Source of the DNA: Anolis carolinensis
Lineage: Eukaryota
Reading direction: 5' to 3'
Assembly (NCBI RefSeq): GCF_035594765.1
Contig: NC_085843.1
Coordinates: forward strand, 147,723,971 to 147,787,970
DNA length: 64,000 nt
Shown: one piece after another, positions 25,555 to 47,039 of the stretch
Numbering within the stretch: the stretch's first letter is position 1
How the letters are laid out: each line of letters starts with the position of its first letter
Translations under genes and position numbers: made by a program
Notes under the pieces: model-generated
The model's input: only the letters and a program-made list of their open reading frames with translations
Databases searched by the model: none
Told to the model about the DNA's origin: nothing

Positions 25555-26547
25555 CATAGAATCATAGAACAGTAGAGTTGGAAGACACCTCATGGGCCAT
25601 CCAGTCCAACCCCCTGCCAAGAAGCAAGAAATCACATTCAAAGCACCCCCGACAGATGGCCATCCAGCTTCTGTTTAAAAGCTTCCAAAGAAGGATCCTC
25701 CACCACAGTCTGGGGGAGAGAGTTCCACTGTTGAACAGCCCTCACAGTGAGGAAGTTCTTCCTGATGTTCAGGTGGAATCTCCTTTCCTGTAGTTTGAAG
25801 CCATTGTTCCGTGTCCTAGTCTGCAGGGCAGCAGAAAACAAGCTTGCTCCCTCCTCCCTATGACTTCCCCTCACATATTTGTACATGGCTATCATGTCTC
25901 CTCTTAGCCTTCTCTTCTGCAGGCTAAACATGCCCAGGTCTTTAAGCCTCTCCTCATAGGGCTTGTTCTCCATTGATCATTTTAGTTGCCCTCCTCTGGA
26001 CACATTCCAGCTTGTCAACATCTCCCTTCAACTGTGGTGCCCAGAATTGGGCACAGTATTCCAGGTGTGGTCTGACCAAGGCAGAATAGAGGGGTAACAT
26101 GACTTCCCTGGATCTAGATGCTATTCCCCTATTGATGCAGGCCAGAATCCCATTGGCTTTCTTAGCAGCCACATCACATTGCTGGCTCATGTTTAACTTG
26201 TTGTCCACGAGGACACCAAGATCTTTTTCACTGCTGTCTAGCCAGGTGTCCCCCATTCTGTATCTTTGCATTCCATTTTTTCTGCCGAAATGAAGTATCT
26301 TGCATTTATCCCTGTTGAACTTCATTTTGTTAGTTTTGGCCCATCTCTCTAGTCTGTCAAGATCATTTTGAATTCTGCTCCTGTCTTCTGGAGTGTTGGC
26401 TATCCCTTCCAGTTTGGTGTCATCTGCAAACTTGATGATCATGCCTTCTAACCCTTCGTCTAAGTCGTTAATAAAGATGTTAAAGAGAACCGGGCCCAGG
26501 ACGGAACCCTGCGGCACTCCACTCGTGACTTCTTTCCAAGATGAAGA
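25555..26547 (-). mobile_element. CR1 LINE, 5'-truncated (ORF2 RT and C-terminus, 3' UTR)
   Basis: [50 protein letters not shown]; TTCTATGA-type tail; frameshift or deletion near 25970. Confidence 0.95.
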
Positions 26548-27719
26548 CCCAACCCCTGCCAATGTTTTCCCCAAACACCACGGCCCACCACCCAAAGAAT
26601 GTTTTCATTGGGGGACCATTTCATCCTAGATTTTGCATTTTCCTCCACCACAGGCAGGCATCCCCTCCGCCCTGGGCGGTGGCAGCGGCAGCAGCAGCAG
26701 GGGGGAGAGGGCAAGTGGGGAGTTCATCCTCTCAAGCCTAGGAGCCGCACTGCATGAGTAGAAAAAGGAGGAGCACCGCCCACTTCGAGCGCCCGCAGTG
26801 GCCTCAGCAGCCATGCAACGACACCTCCCTCAGAGGTGTCACTCTTCTTCTTCTGCTCCTCTGCTCTTCCTTCCCTTCCCCCCACTCTTGGCTGCACGAG
26901 ATGACCAAATGCAGGCTTTTCCTGCCCGGGAGCTTGCCAATTGGGGGGACCCCCAAAGGTCATCTAGTCCAACCAACCACATTTTGCACGTGGTGAGGAG
27001 GAGAGGAGAGGGGGAGGAAGCCAAAGCTGCAATGGCACCTGCAGGCTGCATCAGAGGATTGATTCATGAGTGACCCTGGGAGGAGGAGGCGGGGGGTGCA
27101 TGCGCATGTGGGAGTGCCTCAACTGTGCCCCATAGAGGATGGCACCTTCGGCAACTGCCTAATTTGCCTTGCAGTTGAACCACCCCTGCATATGGCCTTC
27201 CCTACACCTAAGCATAGGTGCACATAGGGCAGGTGTAAGACATTGTTTCATTATGTAGTCTAGCAGGGAGAAGCATCTACCAATTCTGTTGGGTTTTGTA
27301 CATTAACTGGAATAAGGTCACCATCTTGTCCTTCACTTCATAAAAGAATTGGCCCAGACCTCTCAGGTAAGAATGCTTGAAGCACACAATCTCTGTTAGT
27401 TTCAGTTATGAACTGGCTTGGTCTACATTGAAATAATTCATAGGTCAGAACAGATTTCTAAATGTCCTCTTTTTCATATGTTTGGGAGGTTAATTGATAG
27501 GTTGCATACGTACAATAGGCACCGCTTAATGGCCTAATCACAAAATAAACAAATAAAAACAAATCAAAAGGCCTTTGATACTTAATCTGGTGTTGGACTG
27601 ATCGATCTGCCCATTTTATAATAGCCCCATTCTTGAGGTGTCGCCAATGCTATATTGCACTTTGTCCATTTTAACTGTGAAATTACCTTCCCCATTTCGG
27701 CCCATTTCGGCACATGTTG

Positions 27720-28952: not shown

Positions 28953-29741
28953 CTCCACAAAAGTCAACACTGACACTGAAATACAACACCGCCTGAGCTC
29001 TGCGAGTGCAGCATTTTTCAGAATGAAGCAGAGAGTGTTTGATGATCGGAACATCCGTAGAGATACCAAGGTGCTTGTTTACAAAGCCATTGTCCTCCCA
29101 ACCCTGCTCTATGCCTGTGAAACATGGACGGTCTACAGACATCACACCCAACTCCTGGAGCGTTTCCATTAGCGTTGCCTCAGAAAAATCCTGAAAATCT
29201 CTTGGGAAGACAGGCGGACAAATGTCAGCGTGCTGGAAGAAGCAAAGACCACCAGCACTGAAGTGATGCTCCTACGCCATCAACTCCGCTGGACTGACCA
29301 CGTTGTCCGAATGCCTGATCACCGTCTCCCAAAGCAGCTACTCTACTCTGAACTCAAGAACGGGAAACGTAATGTTGGTGGGCAGGAAAAGAGATTTAAA
29401 GATGGGCTTAAAGCCAACCTTAAAAACTGTGACATAGATACTGACAACTGGGAAGCCCTGGCCCTTGAGCATTCTAATTGGAGGTCAGCTGTGACCAGCA
29501 GTGCTGCGGAATTCAAAGAGGCACGGATGGAGGGCTTAAGGGAGAAATGTGCCAAGAGGAAGGCCCATCAAGTCAACCCTGACCGGGACCGCCTTCCACC
29601 TGGAAACCGATGTCCTCACTGCGGGAGAACATGCAGATCAAGAATAGGTTTCTTCAGCCACCTAAGAACCCACCCCCAAGACACCAGAGATGGAAGACAA
29701 TCCTCCTCGAGCTACGAGGGATTGCCTAAGTAAGTAAGTAA
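28953..29741 (+). mobile_element. RTE-clade LINE 3' fragment
   Basis: YKAIVLPTLLYACETW, QLRWxxHVVRM, C-terminal CPHC...HLRTH zinc finger, (TAAG)n tail, TSD GGAGTTGCT (28944-28952 / 29742-29750), one in-frame stop at 29170-29172. Confidence 0.93.
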
Positions 29742-39240: not shown

Positions 39241-39248
39241 AATGTGAT

Positions 39249-40398
39249 TGTTATGATTGAGCCTCATGGCTCTGTTACTGACAGACGTGGGCGTAAGACT
39301 CCTCGAGAGTCAGATACTCTCGAGGAGCGAGAGAGAAAAAGACTGCGAGACATATTTGCAGCACCATCTGACGAAGAGTCTTTCGAGGGGTTTACGGAGA
39401 GAATGGAGGAGGGGCTGGTTAGCTCAGAGGAGGATGAGATGGATTGGACTCGGGTAAGGGAGGAATTGGGTGCCACTGGCCATGATGGGATAGAAGATGA
39501 ATGGGGACCTTCAGGATTAGACCCATGGCTTAGCTGGAGGGATGGGACGGGATCCACAGCTGGAGATGCTGTTGGGCGTAGTCAGAGGTGTTCCAGCTCT
39601 GACGAGGAAAGTGATGAGGAAACGCCCGGGTTAAGGAGGACAGCTGACAGTGATGAGGATTTGTAACTGGCATAAAATGGGGCTTGGGAGCAATTGCAAA
39701 TTGCGTTGGGCAAGGTAATCTGGACAAACGCTTGGGATCTGTGTGTGTGGGACGCTTTCCTGAAGACTGGTGTGTTTTCCTGTGCTGAGACGTAAGTGGT
39801 TTTGGAATTCAGGGTCAGACGGCGGGAGGAATTGTGTGGGCATTTGTTTGTGCAAACCTGTGCTTACTCTTATTAGCTTGACCTTCCGTCGTCTTCTTGA
39901 CGGACGCCATCTCCTGCTTTGAAAACTCGGACTGAACTGACCACGGCTTGTCTTCCCCCCCTTCTTGGACTTGGAAAAACTACAAACGTCTGCTTCTGGC
40001 TTTGATCTACGGAACGGAACTGGTCTACTCTACTGCTACAATCCTTGGCTGATCTGCTCGTGTTGGAAATCCTGTCTGCTGTGTGTGTGTGGGAGCGACG
40101 CAAGTTACTCTAAGCACAGTGTTGGCAGCAGAGAGGAATCTGCTGCCAATTAGTTGCATTCTTTGTATCTTTTGTTCCTTGGCTTTCGTTTTGTTTATAC
40201 CCAGGCTGAAGCAAGCAGTTTGTTTTTACCCGGATTAAAATCCGGTTTAATCCGGTTTATCTTTTGAACATTTACTTTTGTCCCTTTTTGCTCCTAAAGG
40301 CAAATACTGCCTGGCCCTTGTGTTTTACGGGCATTTTTTGAGTTCTGTAATCTAATAAACTCTGTTACTTTGAATCTTGTGGCGTTCTGTCCTTGACA
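39249..40398 (+). repeat. 5' LTR
   Basis: Starts TGTTATGATTGAG and ends CCTTGACA. Matches 44442-45591 except G/A at 39860/45053 and A/C at 40240/45433 (differences found by eye). Confidence 0.97.
39671..39677 (+). promoter_or_regulatory. TATA-like box of the LTR promoter
   Basis: CATAAAA about 32 nt upstream of the inferred transcript start at 39703. Confidence 0.6.
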
Positions 40399-40400
40399 GA

Positions 40401-40411
40401 TTGCCCAACGC
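40401..40411 (+). promoter_or_regulatory. Self-priming-type primer binding site
   Basis: TTGCCCAACGC lies 2 nt after the 5' LTR, lacks the TGG of a tRNA PBS, and is the exact reverse complement of GCGTTGGGCAA at 39703-39713. Confidence 0.8.
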
Positions 40412-40453
40412 CCATAAAAAGTTTATTGCAGCAATAAACCCGTCAGGAAGACG

Positions 40454-41254
40454 ATGGATGAGTTAAGGGCCAGATTTGACCAATTGCAGACGGCTTTTAT
40501 CGTTAGCCAAACAGCTCATGCTGTGAAAGGACATGTTTTGCCTCCTGAACGCTTTGACGGAACCAGGTGCAAGTTGCCAACCTTTTTGGCACAAGTGGAG
40601 CTTTATTTTTCTCAGCTCAGTGCTCATGCTTTTCCTACAGACACTAGCAAGGTGGCCTTTATTTTGAGTTTGTTGACCGGTCCCGCAGGACAATGGGCCA
40701 CTAATTTAATTTTGGGAAATGACCCAGTCAAGGACAATTTGAATAATTTCAAAAAGTTGTTAACTGATACTTTTGGGGATCCTCTCCGCACGGAGAACGC
40801 TGGGTGGGCTCTGTATCGGTTGAAACAGGGAAAGGGGACTGTTTTGGATTACTTAAATAAGTTTAACCTGTATCGCCACCAGCTGGATTGGGGGGAAAAT
40901 GCATTCATGCTTTTATTTACTGCCGGGTTAAGTGATATGCTCCAGGATGAATTAGCACGCTTGGAGCCGGCTGAAAGCTGGGACGCCTTAGTAGCCAAGG
41001 TGCTGCGTTTAGACGCAAGGTTCGAGGCTCGCAAACACTCAAAAGCAATGTGTGCGCCACCCATGCATGTAACCAGGGCACCTGTGGTGATGGGGGAAGA
41101 GCCCATGGAGCTTGGGGTCTTTAAAAAGCTGTCTACAGAGGAAAAGAGCCGTAGGAGGCAGCTGGGCTTGTGTTTGTACTGTGGGAATGCTGGGCATTTT
41201 GCCAAAGATTGTAATGTGAAACCTTCCCAGCTTTCGGGAAAAGGCCAGCCCTAG
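40454..41254 (+). CDS. gag: Gag, 266 aa, retrotransposon capsid plus CCHC zinc knuckle
   Basis: PERFDG...FLAQ, LxQGxxxV..Y...F major-homology-like region, EPMELG and CLYCGNAGHFAKDC, as in sushi/PEG10-type Gag. Confidence 0.95.
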   Translation: MDELRARFDQLQTAFIVSQTAHAVKGHVLPPERFDGTRCKLPTFLAQVELYFSQLSAHAFPTDTSKVAFILSLLTGPAGQWATNLILGNDPVKDNLNNFKKLLTDTFGDPLRTENAGWALYRLKQGKGTVLDYLNKFNLYRHQLDWGENAFMLLFTAGLSDMLQDELARLEPAESWDALVAKVLRLDARFEARKHSKAMCAPPMHVTRAPVVMGEEPMELGVFKKLSTEEKSRRRQLGLCLYCGNAGHFAKDCNVKPSQLSGKGQP

Positions 41255-41282
41255 TGCGACGTGAGTCCAACGCACTAGGGCT
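41236..41282 (+). promoter_or_regulatory. -1 programmed ribosomal frameshift signal
   Basis: G GGA AAA heptamer in the gag frame (41236-41242), followed by a perfect 12-bp stem AGCCCTAGTGCG / CGCACTAGGGCT (41247-41258 / 41271-41282). Confidence 0.85.
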
Positions 41283-44200
41283 CCTCAAGCAGTCAACTGA
41301 GGGGAGGAAGCATGTTTTCGTACCCATTACATTATCTGTTGGGGGAAGGGAACTTGTTTCTACTTTGGCACTGCTGGACTCAGGGGCTACGGTCTCTTAT
41401 GTAGATATTGAGTTTGCTAAGAAGCATGGCATTCCTAGAGTGCGCAAGGCATGCGACGTGTGGGTGGAAGGAGCAGATGGGAGACTGCTGGAGACTGGGG
41501 TGGTTAACCATGAAACCTCAGCAGTAATGTGGGAGGTGCAGGGAGTAACGGGAACGTTTGTGTGGGATATTACGAGCTTGCCTAGATATGATGTGATCCT
41601 GGGGATGGATTGGCTAGCTGTAGTAAACCCACAAGTAGATTGGGCGACACGTAAAGTGATCTTAAAGAGGCAGGATTGTTGCACTCTAAATGTTACTCAT
41701 TCTGATATGGAGGGAGTGCCTGCTGAGTATGGGGAGTTCTCTGATGTATTTTGTAAAAGAGAAGCGGACAAATTACCACCGCACAGGCCATATGATTGCG
41801 CCATCAAGTTGGCAGAAGGTGCGAAATTGCCAGCAGGGAGGCTGTATGCCTTGACTGTACTGGAAAGGCAAGCTTTGCGGGAGTTTCTAGATGAAAATTT
41901 AGCCAAGGGGTTTATTCGCCCATCTAGTTCTCCAACTGCGGCACCAGTATTCTTTGTAGCCAAAAAGACTGGGGAACTTAGGCTGGTCTGCGACTATCGG
42001 ATCCTAAACAAATACACCATTCGGGATAGGTACCCGCTCCCTTTAATCTCGGAACTGTTATCAAGGGTGCAAGGGGCTAAGGTCTTTACCAAGCTTGACC
42101 TGCGGGGGGCCTATAACTTAATCCGTATACGGGAAGGGGATGAATGGAAGACGGCATTTAACACGTGTTTCGGATGCCACGAGTTCCGAGTCATGCCTTT
42201 TGGGCTTTGTAATGCTCCTGCGGTCTTCCAGAGGTTCATGAACGATGTGTTCAGGGACCTAATTGACCAACTTTTAGTGATTTATTTGGATGATATCTTG
42301 GTTTTTTCTAAGGACGAGAAAGAACATCGTCAACATGTCAAGCAGGTTCTGCACCGACTGCGGGCTAATGGGCTTTTCGCCAAGGCTTCCAAGTGCGTCT
42401 TTCATGTGCCTGAAGTGGAGTTCCTAGGTCATGTAGTGTCAGGTAGGGAACTTAAAATGGACCCACATAAGGTTGACGCCGTCAACTCATGGCAGGAGCT
42501 GAAGACTAAGAAGGATGTACAAAGGTTCTTAGGTTTCGCTAATTACTACCGGGAGTTTATTCCGAATTTTGCAAAGCTCACGGTACCTTTGACGCAGCTC
42601 CTGCGCAAGAAACAGCCATTTGTGTGGGGGCGGGAAGCTCACGAGGCGTTTCTACAACTTAAGTCTAGTTTTCAATCGGATAACATACTAACCCATCCTG
42701 ATGTTGACAAACCGTTCGTGGTAGAAGCGGACGCTTCTAGCTACGCGTTGGGGGCTGTATTGTCTCAGAAGGATTCCTCAGGGACCTTGCGTCCCTGTGG
42801 ATTTTACTCGCGGCAACTAACACCCTTCGAGCAGAACTATACCATATGGGAGAAGGAGTTGTTGGCGATTAAGGTGGCGTTTGAGGTGTGGCGGCACTGG
42901 CTTGAAGGGGCACGGCACCAGATCGTGGTCAGATCTGATCACAAGAACTTAGAGCACTTGCAAACAGCAAAGAAGTTAAACCAGCGTCAAATCCGATGTG
43001 CTTTGTTTTTCTCCAGGTTTAACTTCAAGGTGCAGTTCGTGGAGGGGAAGGCAAACTTGCGGGCCGATGCTTTATCCCGCAAGCCGGAGTTTAAGACCAA
43101 TGAGCAGGTAGTATGTCAGACCATCTTGCCTACTGCCTCTCTGTGTGTTGTAGATAATGAGCTCGGGTTACATGACCAGATCCTTGAGGCTCAGAGGGAT
43201 GATGTGTGGACACAGGAGCAACTGATGCTGCTCTCAGCAGGTAACCGTACCATACTGCCGCATCTACAAGATCAAGACGGAGTATTGGTACGCAGGGGGC
43301 AGGTCTACGTACCAGTGGGGGCCCTCAGGTTGGAGGTGATTAGAGCCCACCATGACGAACCCATGGCTGGGCACTTTGGCAGGTTCAAGACCGTACAGCT
43401 TATCACCAGGAGCTACTGGTGGCCAAAGATGCGGCAAGACATTCTGCGCTTTTGTGACAGCTGCGCCGTTTGCCAGCAGAGTAAGACGCCTGTTGGGCGC
43501 CCTAGAGGGTTGTTGTCGTCTCTACCTGTTCCGGAGAGGGCATGGCAAATCATTTCCATGGATTTTATTTCAGATTTGCCTAAGTCTGGGGGTTATACTT
43601 GTATTTGGGTGGTGGTGGATTTATTTAGTAAACTGGCTCATTTTATTCCTTGTTCAACCATTCCGGCGGCCCCTACGTTGGCCTTACTATTTACTAAGCA
43701 CATCTATCGTTTGCACGGAGCACCCGAGGTGATTATTTCAGATAGGGCTCCGCAATTTGTGTCACGCTTTTGGAAACATTTCCATGAGTGCTTGGGGACT
43801 AAGTTAAACGTTTCTTCAGCCTTTCATCCGCAAACGGATGGACAGTCGGAACGGGTTAATGGGCTCTTAGAGCAGTATTTGCGTTGTTTTTGTTTAGATC
43901 AACCCACGGCTTGGGTGAAGTGGTTACCGGTGGCGGAATTCGCTTACAACAATGCGGTGCACACGTCTAGTCAGCATACGCCATTTGAGCTAACTTATGG
44001 TTTTCACCCACGGGGAGGTGTGGCGCCGTCGACCAATGTGGTCTCTTCGGACCCTGTATACCGCTCTTCGGAAATGGCTGCATTGCATGATGTTGCCCGT
44101 CGCTTACTGTTGGAAGCTGAGGCAACGCAGAAGACTCAGGCTGACCGCCACAGGCAGGCAGGGGAGGAGTTGGAAGAAGGGGATTTGGTGTGGTTATCTT

Positions 44201-44859
44201 CCAAACATATTAAACAGGCTGGGGGAAAGTTTGCGCCTCGGTATTTGGGTCCCTTTCCTATCGTTAAAAAGATTTCTTCCGTTGCGTTTCGTTTGCGTTT
44301 ACCGTCTAGTTTAAAGGTCCATCCAGTCTTTCATCGTTCGCTGTTGAAACTTGATACCTCTAGTCGTCGTGGTGCTATAGCGGAGGGTATCACTGCCACT
44401 TCTCCGCCATCGGGGGAGGAGGCCTTTGTGAGAGGGGATAGTGTTATGATTGAGCCTCATGGCTCTGTTACTGACAGACGTGGGCGTAAGACTCCTCGAG
44501 AGTCAGATACTCTCGAGGAGCGAGAGAGAAAAAGACTGCGAGACATATTTGCAGCACCATCTGACGAAGAGTCTTTCGAGGGGTTTACGGAGAGAATGGA
44601 GGAGGGGCTGGTTAGCTCAGAGGAGGATGAGATGGATTGGACTCGGGTAAGGGAGGAATTGGGTGCCACTGGCCATGATGGGATAGAAGATGAATGGGGA
44701 CCTTCAGGATTAGACCCATGGCTTAGCTGGAGGGATGGGACGGGATCCACAGCTGGAGATGCTGTTGGGCGTAGTCAGAGGTGTTCCAGCTCTGACGAGG
44801 AAAGTGATGAGGAAACGCCCGGGTTAAGGAGGACAGCTGACAGTGATGAGGATTTGTAA
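41254..44859 (+). CDS. pol: Pol (protease, RT, RNase H, integrase plus LTR-encoded acidic tail), most likely made as Gag-Pol by -1 frameshift near 41236-41242
   Basis: LLDSGA protease, YLDD RT, ADAS..LGAVL and EKELLAI RNase H, HH..CC zinc site, D-D-E core, GPF and HPVFH..LLK module; uninterrupted 1201-codon ORF in the -1 frame relative to gag. Confidence 0.96.
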   Translation: MRRESNALGLLKQSTEGRKHVFVPITLSVGGRELVSTLALLDSGATVSYVDIEFAKKHGIPRVRKACDVWVEGADGRLLETGVVNHETSAVMWEVQGVTGTFVWDITSLPRYDVILGMDWLAVVNPQVDWATRKVILKRQDCCTLNVTHSDMEGVPAEYGEFSDVFCKREADKLPPHRPYDCAIKLAEGAKLPAGRLYALTVLERQALREFLDENLAKGFIRPSSSPTAAPVFFVAKKTGELRLVCDYRILNKYTIRDRYPLPLISELLSRVQGAKVFTKLDLRGAYNLIRIREGDEWKTAFNTCFGCHEFRVMPFGLCNAPAVFQRFMNDVFRDLIDQLLVIYLDDILVFSKDEKEHRQHVKQVLHRLRANGLFAKASKCVFHVPEVEFLGHVVSGRELKMDPHKVDAVNSWQELKTKKDVQRFLGFANYYREFIPNFAKLTVPLTQLLRKKQPFVWGREAHEAFLQLKSSFQSDNILTHPDVDKPFVVEADASSYALGAVLSQKDSSGTLRPCGFYSRQLTPFEQNYTIWEKELLAIKVAFEVWRHWLEGARHQIVVRSDHKNLEHLQTAKKLNQRQIRCALFFSRFNFKVQFVEGKANLRADALSRKPEFKTNEQVVCQTILPTASLCVVDNELGLHDQILEAQRDDVWTQEQLMLLSAGNRTILPHLQDQDGVLVRRGQVYVPVGALRLEVIRAHHDEPMAGHFGRFKTVQLITRSYWWPKMRQDILRFCDSCAVCQQSKTPVGRPRGLLSSLPVPERAWQIISMDFISDLPKSGGYTCIWVVVDLFSKLAHFIPCSTIPAAPTLALLFTKHIYRLHGAPEVIISDRAPQFVSRFWKHFHECLGTKLNVSSAFHPQTDGQSERVNGLLEQYLRCFCLDQPTAWVKWLPVAEFAYNNAVHTSSQHTPFELTYGFHPRGGVAPSTNVVSSDPVYRSSEMAALHDVARRLLLEAEATQKTQADRHRQAGEELEEGDLVWLSSKHIKQAGGKFAPRYLGPFPIVKKISSVAFRLRLPSSLKVHPVFHRSLLKLDTSSRRGAIAEGITATSPPSGEEAFVRGDSVMIEPHGSVTDRRGRKTPRESDTLEERERKRLRDIFAAPSDEESFEGFTERMEEGLVSSEEDEMDWTRVREELGATGHDGIEDEWGPSGLDPWLSWRDGTGSTAGDAVGRSQRCSSSDEESDEETPGLRRTADSDEDL
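44430..44441 (+). promoter_or_regulatory. Polypurine tract
   Basis: GAGAGGGGATAG directly abuts the TG start of the 3' LTR. Confidence 0.8.
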
Positions 44860-45591
44860 CTGGCATAAAATGGGGCTTGGGAGCAATTGCAAATTGCGTT
44901 GGGCAAGGTAATCTGGACAAACGCTTGGGATCTGTGTGTGTGGGACGCTTTCCTGAAGACTGGTGTGTTTTCCTGTGCTGAGACGTAAGTGGTTTTGGAA
45001 TTCAGGGTCAGACGGCGGGAGGAATTGTGTGGGCATTTGTTTGTGCAAACCTATGCTTACTCTTATTAGCTTGACCTTCCGTCGTCTTCTTGACGGACGC
45101 CATCTCCTGCTTTGAAAACTCGGACTGAACTGACCACGGCTTGTCTTCCCCCCCTTCTTGGACTTGGAAAAACTACAAACGTCTGCTTCTGGCTTTGATC
45201 TACGGAACGGAACTGGTCTACTCTACTGCTACAATCCTTGGCTGATCTGCTCGTGTTGGAAATCCTGTCTGCTGTGTGTGTGTGGGAGCGACGCAAGTTA
45301 CTCTAAGCACAGTGTTGGCAGCAGAGAGGAATCTGCTGCCAATTAGTTGCATTCTTTGTATCTTTTGTTCCTTGGCTTTCGTTTTGTTTATACCCAGGCT
45401 GAAGCAAGCAGTTTGTTTTTACCCGGATTAAACTCCGGTTTAATCCGGTTTATCTTTTGAACATTTACTTTTGTCCCTTTTTGCTCCTAAAGGCAAATAC
45501 TGCCTGGCCCTTGTGTTTTACGGGCATTTTTTGAGTTCTGTAATCTAATAAACTCTGTTACTTTGAATCTTGTGGCGTTCTGTCCTTGACA
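44442..45591 (+). repeat. 3' LTR
   Basis: Direct repeat of the 5' LTR at offset 5193, followed by TSD GTGAT. Confidence 0.97.
45547..45552 (+). terminator. LTR polyadenylation signal (copy at 40354-40359)
   Basis: AATAAA about 40 nt before the LTR end, followed by GT/T-rich sequence. Confidence 0.65.
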
Positions 45592-47039
45592 GTGATCATT
45601 TTACACAAGTTGCCATTTGAATATAGTTCTATTAGCAATGAAATTGAACTTTTTCCATGTTGGCATATGCAGTCTACTTTTACAGATAAGTATAGTTTTT
45701 GAATGTATATTTTCTGACTGTATATTAGATTGTCTGTGTCAAATAATCAATAAAATAACTTTAAAAAGATTAAAACATTAAAAAATATTTTGATCATCAT
45801 TTTCTGTTATCATTCTAATTCTGGTGCTCTCAGAAATTTAACACTTGAATCACTATGAGCCTGATATTGCATCCATATTTGAGGGTGTTGTACCAGCAAA
45901 GCCATGGTGCTGTTGGTTACTAGGGCCAAGCCAATGTTTTTATGCAAAAATCTATTTGTACACAGCACAGTATTTCTGTGTGCCCCTATGCATGTACCCA
46001 GAAACACACACAAATCTTTGTAAAATTTTCACTGAAAAGGGCCTGAAAAATGTCCATCTAGTAAAATTTCACCCAGTAGAAGAAAGCTGATATTTTTGTT
46101 CCTTTGTGAGAGACTGATTACAGATGTGCACTTCTAAATTACAGTGACTTAAGGTGTAGGCTTAGCATCATCATAGAGGAAAAAATAGATATTCATAATT
46201 ATCTGAGTCAAAAGGAAATGAGTACAGTGAGTAAAGAGTACAGTTAGTTTCCCAGGAGATGACTGAAGAGGGTTAGTTGTTATCACAGAGATCCAATTCA
46301 GAGGGAAGTAACCCAAAGCTATTTCCAACAGTTAAAAATGTCATAAGCAATTAACCTGTAATTATCCTCTAAATATCACATCACCATGCTCTGTATAGGT
46401 AAAACAAATTTGAAAACAGTTACTGCTGCACATATTGAAATAAAGTGAATTGCCATTTAATGAAAGTTGAAGAGTCAGACTACAAACGTGTACAGCCAAA
46501 TTGCTTGGAGGAGGGAAAATCAAGGGATTACTTTAAATGAAAGTGGTTTGGCCTGTGCAAGAACACAGGATAATACAAGCCAAAAAGGTTCTCCAAGCTG
46601 GAAAGGGTGTTGCCTTAAGCACTGACATTTGAAAGGAATAATGCTACAAATGAAAGTATTTTGGGAAGCATGTGTAAATACTACGAGTAATTTAAGTTCT
46701 CATGGAAACAGAGGAGTGAAAGAGGCTAGAAAGAAACAGAAGCCTTTTTGATTCACATCACCAATGGAGGATATCCCCTCAAATAAAAATAACATTCAAA
46801 TTGTTGACTTCAACTCTCTATAAAAATTCATTTACACAGGATTGTGATGATCTATTTAGGCTACTGGGGATATGCCCTGTTTCTGCTTTTGTGTTTTTAT
46901 TGTTCTATTACTGCCCTCATCACTAGAATACTACACTACACAAAAATATTCTACACATATTAGGGAGATGCAGACTTGTTAAGTCTACATCTGGGAAATT
47001 CCTCCACTCTGGCCAGTTGTTAGAACTAGGGCCACTTTA

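Follow-up and report, generated by a model that had tools for sequence, protein, structure and literature searches.

Lentiviral integrase binds the integrase-binding domain (IBD) of LEDGF/p75 through its folded core and N-terminal domains. Short integrase targeting peptides are found in Ty1 (TD, with AC40), Ty5 (with Sir4), and MLV (the tail, with BET); to our knowledge, none of the Ty1 TD, Ty5, and MLV tail peptides is encoded by an LTR. POGZ, a domesticated pogo transposase, binds LEDGF. The polyprotein of plant CRM group A continues into the 3' LTR, where the CR motif is encoded (PMC3059260). For the Tf1/sushi group, a preprint names self-priming as the hallmark and -1 frameshifting as the mode used by most non-yeast elements (bioRxiv 10.1101/2022.12.06.519325). 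On the host side, TND-interacting motifs (TIMs) are described as a hydrophobic helix (F/V/L/I), an acidic linker of 8 to 16 residues with phosphorylatable Ser/Thr, and an optional FxGF (PMC9987994). The same article gives FxGF as common to all known LEDGF/HRP2 partners, assigns several TIMs to each of JPO2 and IWS1, and describes LEDGF/HRP2 PWWP domains as readers of H3K36me2/3 and lentiviral integration as tethered to gene bodies.

The window analyzed here, that is, the whole 64,000-nt stretch of Anolis carolinensis DNA, contained a complete, young Ty3/Gypsy retrotransposon of the Tf1/sushi type at 39249-45591 (Table 1). Its assignment to this type rests on self-priming, the order protease, RT, RNase H, then integrase, and an RT-integrase affinity with chromodomain-bearing elements. 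The 11-nt PBS was complementary, without a mismatch, to LTR nt 455-465 (39703-39713), and this pairing was present in both the MFE and the centroid folds of the leader. From the position of the self-primer, the transcript likely starts near 39703, giving a U3 of about 454 nt, of which 418 are coding. gag and Pol overlapped in different frames, and Pfam models for protease, RT, RNase H, integrase, SH3_Tf2-1, and also Integrase_p58_C matched Pol. In a compared set without named reference elements, the best non-anole RT-integrase match was P0005 (57%), which bears a chromodomain. The closest database proteins were from A. carolinensis. One Anolis entry, P0014 (UniRef H9GK86), a dystrophin-family EF-hand gene model, was 100% identical to the integrase-to-tail query over 20% of its length and is probably a chimeric gene model containing element sequence. 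The family is young and also large, its LTR DNA having about 2000 candidates at first look. Tandem arrays of the element with shared LTRs were found at G000:C2:200844636-200857190 and C5:177122919-177133667, the 4054-nt period of the C2 array representing an internally shortened unit. Elsewhere in the window, an RVT_1 fragment of a LINE-type element was present at 25954-26604 on the minus strand, and a 186-codon frame at 29173-29733 on the plus strand had a weak C2H2 zinc-finger match below the Pfam cut-off (E 0.008).

Table 1. Parts of the anole element, in positions of the window
Feature	Position	Strand	Basis or remark
Left target-site duplication GTGAT	39244..39248	.	same 5 nt at 45592-45596
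5' LTR, 1150 nt, TG..CA	39249..40398	+	2 mismatches vs 3' LTR
U3 of 5' LTR, probable extent	about 39249-39702	+	
U3 frame, 5' LTR copy, 137 aa from ATG; upstream of likely transcript start	39253..39666	+	
TATA-like box CATAAAA of 5' LTR, 32 nt before self-primer; putative function	39671..39677	+	
Self-primer, PBS-complementary; likely transcript 5' end	39703..39713	+	
PBS, self-priming type	40401..40411	+	
gag: Ty3_capsid / Retrotrans_gag, CCHC knuckle	40454..41254	+	Pfam
pol frame, 1214 codons: protease, RT, RNase H, integrase, SH3/GPF module, linker, U3 tail	41215..44859	+	ORFs, Pfam
Slippery heptamer GGGAAAA in gag/pol overlap; likely -1 frameshift site	41236..41242	+	
SH3_Tf2-1 module (GPF ... 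HPVFH), no chromodomain after	44179..44349	+	Pfam
Short linker at the place of the relatives' chromodomain	44350..44441	+	
PPT, last 12 nt of linker, translated in frame	44430-44441	+	
3' LTR, 1150 nt; end of Pol encoded by first 418 nt	44442..45591	+	
Basic/charged block RRGRK ... EE..RKR, conserved, precedes motif; possible NLS	44476..44535	+	column identities
TIM/IBM look-alike: helix part LRDIF, acidic linker of 8 residues, FEGF	44536..44586	+	PDB 6EMO match; host CDCA7L/CDCA7 motifs
Rest of acidic tail, weaker selection; conserved DWT..E element within	44587..44859	+	
TATA-like box CATAAAA of 3' LTR, 4 nt past stop	44864..44870	+	
Right target-site duplication GTGAT	45592..45596	.	

As an earlier note on this DNA had claimed, the Pol frame crosses the PPT and stays open for 1214 codons, through 418 nt of the 3' LTR, to a TAA at 44857-44859, just 4 nt before the TATA-like CATAAAA (44864-44870). 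U3 is thus nearly all coding (418 of about 454 nt, the latter length depending on the self-primer), and the sequence confirmed that an ATG at LTR nt 5 opens a 137-aa ORF. This 137-aa tail contains 39 D/E and 18 K/R. Such an open frame was also unlikely by chance, arising in 10 of 20,000 simulations under a dinucleotide model and in 3 of 20,000 base shuffles. The frame was not lost in most copies: 138 codons were intact in 29 of 30 LTRs picked by U5 similarity, a set of young near-copies to which the window's own LTRs belong. The same 30 LTRs had no indels in U3 versus 35 (3 distinct) in the remaining LTR. Open frames in copy lists ranked by U3 similarity were excluded as a biased test; in one such U3-ranked set the module was in frame with integrase in 29 of 30 copies, and many 1214-codon frames were found in another. 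Solo LTRs were found to spread the coding module in hundreds to thousands of copies, again in line with the note. Contigs from four read sets spanned integrase and U3 without a gap, and no joint of the leader to the start of U3 was found in them; none of the 24 sets is recorded as RNA and 14 were only guessed to be RNA, so these contigs give no firm word on transcription or splicing.

An open U3 frame might also be a by-product of promoter constraint in young copies, with no protein function; the window's subfamily consists of near-identical copies, whose open frames carry little information by themselves. Against this reading stood the codon-position bias that the note had proposed as a test. 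Compared with copies of subfamily B, the sister subfamily with 93.5% Pol identity, differences in the tail numbered 8, 6, and 33 at the first, second, and third codon positions. Two subfamily-B copies gave tail dN/dS values of 0.16 and 0.14 (Fisher p 2.7e-9 and 2.2e-10), and the more distant copies L166 and L172 gave 0.26 and 0.27, with synonymous sites near saturation; all values come from our own counting, of Nei-Gojobori type, between paired real copies, four diverged copies in all. Constraint was strongest in the 37 codons that span the basic block and motif (pN 0.09-0.12 at pS 0.69-0.76, L166/L172), and the region downstream of the motif was looser (dN/dS 0.34-0.41). An indel contrast within one LTR also argued against a by-product: the fully aligned LTR L097 had none in the 418 coding nt versus 28 in the other 732 nt. 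The codon-position bias refutes the by-product reading for practical purposes, and we give it next to no probability. The U3 frame genuinely extends the coding sequence of Pol and is under purifying selection.

The note had further proposed that an LTR-encoded tail replaced the chromodomain. The chromodomain is indeed absent: no Chromo match (PF00385) was found in Pol or its tail at E values up to 10, and the same Pfam scan detected Chromo in six of six related element proteins. The element therefore lacks the structural mark of a chromovirus, a chromodomain at the integrase C-terminus, and the distance from HPVFH to the LTR was about 42 aa versus about 108 aa in the anole chromodomain family. 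A simple replacement did not stand, however, because read-through coexists with a chromodomain in relatives. The anole chromodomain-bearing family has the same PPT/LTR junction, and its Pol enters U3 by 280-295 nt; relatives in Podarcis and cobra, together with one further relative, have a chromodomain plus a long tail. Judged from these sequences, read-through into U3 is clade-wide and older than the loss of the chromodomain, and what is special to the window's family is that loss combined with the TIM-like motif. In an older family, the decayed full-length member L200 (Pol pieces 58-81% identical) also lacked the chromodomain and had the motif in U3. The chromodomain-bearing sushi-type anole family (L143-L145 and L098-L142) is itself large, young, and self-priming, with a Pol of 1256/1261 codons and LTRs of 915-950 nt. 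Its tail of 194-206 aa from HPVFH was kept in 43 of 45 loci, in-frame indels varying the length. It also has an acidic stretch with LGF at its end, perhaps a remnant or variant form of the motif.

The tail had been described as acidic, which is correct but incomplete: its most conserved part, 44536-44586, reads LRDIFAAPSDEESFEGF and has the anatomy of a TND-interacting motif, with a candidate helix, an 8-residue acidic linker, and FxGF. A motif of the LEDGF-binding type did not figure in the earlier note. FxGF is represented by FEGF at 44575-44586, and an acidic linker of 8 residues, with Ser/Thr, separates IF from FxGF, as in JPO2 M1 and anole CDCA7L. LRDIF fits the sequence pattern of the helix; among 18 diverged LTRs, I was present in 13, and the last position was F or L, with F in only 5 and mostly L. 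The exons of anole CDCA7L and CDCA7 had the same anatomy and the same 8-residue linker. A recent capture from CDCA7L/CDCA7 was rejected by eye on the many silent-site codon differences, an older capture being possible. In shuffles of the tail, the helix-acid-FxGF pattern appeared in 2 of 200,000.

The only PDB match of the 137-aa tail at E values up to 10 was 6EMO, in which the integrase-binding domain of LEDGF is fused to motif 1 (M1) of JPO2, over residues 29-48 (E 1.6); a 40-residue query gave 6EMO at E 0.12, with a PPR repeat protein above it, and neither single-sequence E value is significant. A profile of 14 element segments placed 6EMO first with E 0.0035, the next match being at 0.5; these segments, as well as the 1852 pattern loci described below, were chosen by the FxGF pattern, which makes their core conserved by construction. 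A search of the ESM Atlas with the tail yielded no usable match. The host has PSIP1 (LEDGF, P0082) and a second gene with a LEDGF domain. A further PSIP1/LEDGF copy lacks introns and has its IBD interrupted by a stop; it is likely a processed pseudogene (L031, G000:C2:143718346-143718648).

A degenerate DNA pattern for the motif core, written so as to skip the window's own subfamilies, had 1852 genomic matches, and its reversed control had 3. The first 30 loci by position, which represent 27 distinct LTRs, were examined, and every one was a related LTR frame; they come from several families whose DNA is about 67-97% alike. Outside the pattern, the three positions of RKR were kept in 17, 17, and 16 of 18, the preceding E in 17 of 17, and P in 16 of 18. 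The conserved flanks consisted above all of the EE..RKR.R.I...P run-up, plus WT..E downstream, and the basic residues were conserved as strongly as the motif. In other families, the DWT..E element leads into a further FxGF unit. The unit was tandemly duplicated in four LTRs, with traces of a third copy. An older solo-LTR family (L147/L148, L158/L159, L161/L162, and L171) had the basic block and motif in tandem, its third FxGF unit being degenerate. Two older families, for each of which 150 matches were scored, consisted nearly entirely of solo LTRs. Of 1624 candidates from a homolog search with the tail region, only 2 were anole proteins. In the top 150 representatives, the full strict pattern was present only in two anole LTR frames and the acid-plus-FxGF pattern in 4, and these representatives showed no spread beyond Anolis and the Podarcis-type lineage.

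In that second lineage, P0007, P0008, and P0075 (Podarcis muralis) and P0273 had an intact chromodomain, and two similar motifs followed it immediately. These motifs lie before the apparent PPT, and about 90 more residues follow past the apparent PPT/LTR junction, which was placed from protein and not from DNA. The first unit reads LxGF in three of the four proteins, and the double motif alone had no match in PDB. In an RT-integrase tree, the Podarcis-type lineage and the anole chromodomain family formed one group, and the window's family formed another with a motif-less Podarcis element (SH-aLRT 87 and 85); this was a quick search with the first BLAST segment per protein and 19 rows. The tree and the different position of the motifs tentatively suggest separate origins in the anole and Podarcis lineages.

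Taken at the sequence level, the tail motif quite probably binds a TND, and given such binding, it would probably serve to tether integration. We lean slightly toward the full proposal that this anole Tf1/sushi lineage, which lacks a chromodomain, uses a U3-coded tail with a host-like TIM, likely still on integrase, to bind LEDGF/HRP2 and tether integration. The tail would be translated and remain attached to mature integrase, and its motif would dock on the integrase-binding domain of LEDGF/p75 or HRP2. Ser/Thr residues of the linker might be phosphorylated by CK2, whose consensus is S/T-x-x-D/E. Binding to LEDGF/HRP2 would then steer integration to H3K36-methylated, transcribed chromatin. 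More tentatively, and with somewhat less than an even chance of being right, squamate Ty3/Gypsy elements may have evolved a mimic of the LEDGF/HRP2 motif at the integrase end at least twice; the anole mimic, encoded in U3, would have multiplied there in tandem and made the chromodomain dispensable, and targeting would have passed from the element's own histone reader to the host reader of H3K36me on which lentiviruses rely.

Annotation-free insertion-site proxies showed no clear genic bias. Flank GC, CpG, repeat share, and absolute strand skew were alike for motif-family and chromodomain-family insertions (p 0.15-0.65), with 58 motif-family and 54 chromodomain-family flanks retained from 60 + 60, the 8 dropped having under 3 kb unmasked. 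Matches in small contigs numbered 11 of 150 for the motif family and 7 of 150 for the chromodomain family by hand counts, both below the 15% genome share, and an internal-only small-contig comparison was flat (p 0.40, rough hand counts). Signed skew alone differed (p 0.011), as one of six uncorrected tests with a flank proxy that failed its own validation. In the flanks concerned (L208-L327), signed skew was negative in 72% of the 58 motif-family versus 37% of the 54 chromodomain-family flanks; this may reflect an antisense intronic orientation, which it would fit, or may be noise. The proxies are low in power because they are annotation-free and because selection acts against genic insertions.

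The motif might instead bind a TND protein for transcription or anti-silencing, the tail being cleaved by the protease or made separately and recruiting or titrating LEDGF/HRP2, TFIIS, Elongin A, or PNUTS. nef and sag, the retroviral genes that overlap U3, encode accessory proteins, which counts for a separate tail, as does an in-frame Met that lies ahead of the module in 13 of the 14 diverged LTRs whose starts were readable. The absence of a visible insertion bias also agrees with a role in transcription, and TIMs broadly serve transcription elongation (PMC9987994). A separate tail is nevertheless hard to reconcile with the module being in frame with integrase in every intact internal-containing copy read, and with a frame that, in all families, begins at LTR nt 2 and so preserves the fusion. 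In addition, the LTR ATG is located upstream of the likely transcript start, and the Podarcis motifs precede the apparent PPT, which leaves no LTR-borne gene there. We consider this explanation unlikely.

The conservation of the basic residues, equal to that of the motif, would also be expected if selection acted on import into the nucleus or on contact with chromatin/DNA, made by RRGRK ... RKR together with a chaperone-like acidic tail, FxGF being incidental or vestigial; moreover, the FxGF-less tails of chromodomain-bearing relatives likewise have an acidic part and a terminal basic cluster. Left unexplained would be the 8-residue spacing from helix to FxGF common with CDCA7L/CDCA7, the low rate in shuffles, the duplication of the whole unit including FxGF, and a second lineage with the motif elsewhere, and this makes such a function quite unlikely. 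The motif could, alternatively, tether integrase to the TND of another elongation protein (TFIIS, Elongin A, IWS1, MED26, or PNUTS), with promoter-proximal or other targeting as the outcome, since TIM helices bind several TNDs with a selectivity unreadable from sequence (PMC9987994). FxGF, for which the same article describes a special role at LEDGF and HRP2, is present here, however, and we hold another TND to be very unlikely as the target.

If tethering through LEDGF/HRP2 is true, the element would be the first case of LEDGF tethering by a retrotransposon, and no earlier mobile element would have achieved it via a canonical TIM. LEDGF use is regarded as a lentiviral trait, and a canonical motif in a vertebrate retrotransposon would show convergence by a different molecular route, with 17 residues as the candidate targeting signal. 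One genome contains young families with and without the chromodomain or the motif, and another lizard contains a lineage with both, which bears on the long-open question of what the C-termini of vertebrate chromoviruses target. In the anole, a promoter region carries selected coding sequence that has been spread in well over a thousand LTRs. No TIM/IBM in a retrotransposon was found in the literature searched; subscription journals, Repbase/GyDB, and supplements lay outside that search and may note the LTR overlap.

With the Tf1/sushi chromoviruses (sushi-ichi and Tf1; Metaviridae), the element has in common the self-priming PBS, the slippery gag/pol overlap, the order of protease, RT, RNase H, then integrase, the GPF/SH3 module, and the 5-bp target-site duplication. 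It differs from them in lacking the chromodomain that its nearest relatives carry, in a Pol that extends 418 nt into U3, and in the TIM-like motif of the tail. The statement in the earlier note that U3 overlaps are known only as separate genes (nef and sag) overlooks plant CRM group A, in which the polyprotein likewise runs into the 3' LTR (PMC3059260). The element is not a member of that group: CRM elements are tRNA-Met-primed and centromeric and have a single gag-pol ORF, whereas this element is self-priming and has gag and pol in different frames. By analogy, the position of the tail matches that of known targeting modules such as the CRM CR motif; in contrast with the CR motif, the module described here resembles a defined host motif with known partners.

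A sequence pattern that fits the hydrophobic helix, an acidic 8-residue linker with Ser/Thr, FxGF, repeats, and an acidic context of the disordered type are all shared with the TIMs of JPO2/CDCA7L M1 (PDB 6EMO), CDCA7, IWS1, and MLL1 (PMC9987994). Unlike the host TIMs, the candidate motif is encoded by a mobile element, inside its LTR. The lentiviral integrase-LEDGF/p75 system offers a parallel in the predicted cofactor and the predicted outcome, transcribed gene bodies, but the predicted contact here is a short linear motif in the tail and not folded domains. The Ty1, Ty5, and MLV peptides are similar as short C-terminal integrase motifs that copy a host interaction, although their host partners differ. 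POGZ is likewise a transposon-derived LEDGF partner, but it is a host gene from a DNA transposon and not the integrase of an active retroelement. What is new here is the TIM-like motif in a retrotransposon tail; the element resembles CRM group A in layout and the lentiviruses in its predicted cofactor, and it is a member of neither.
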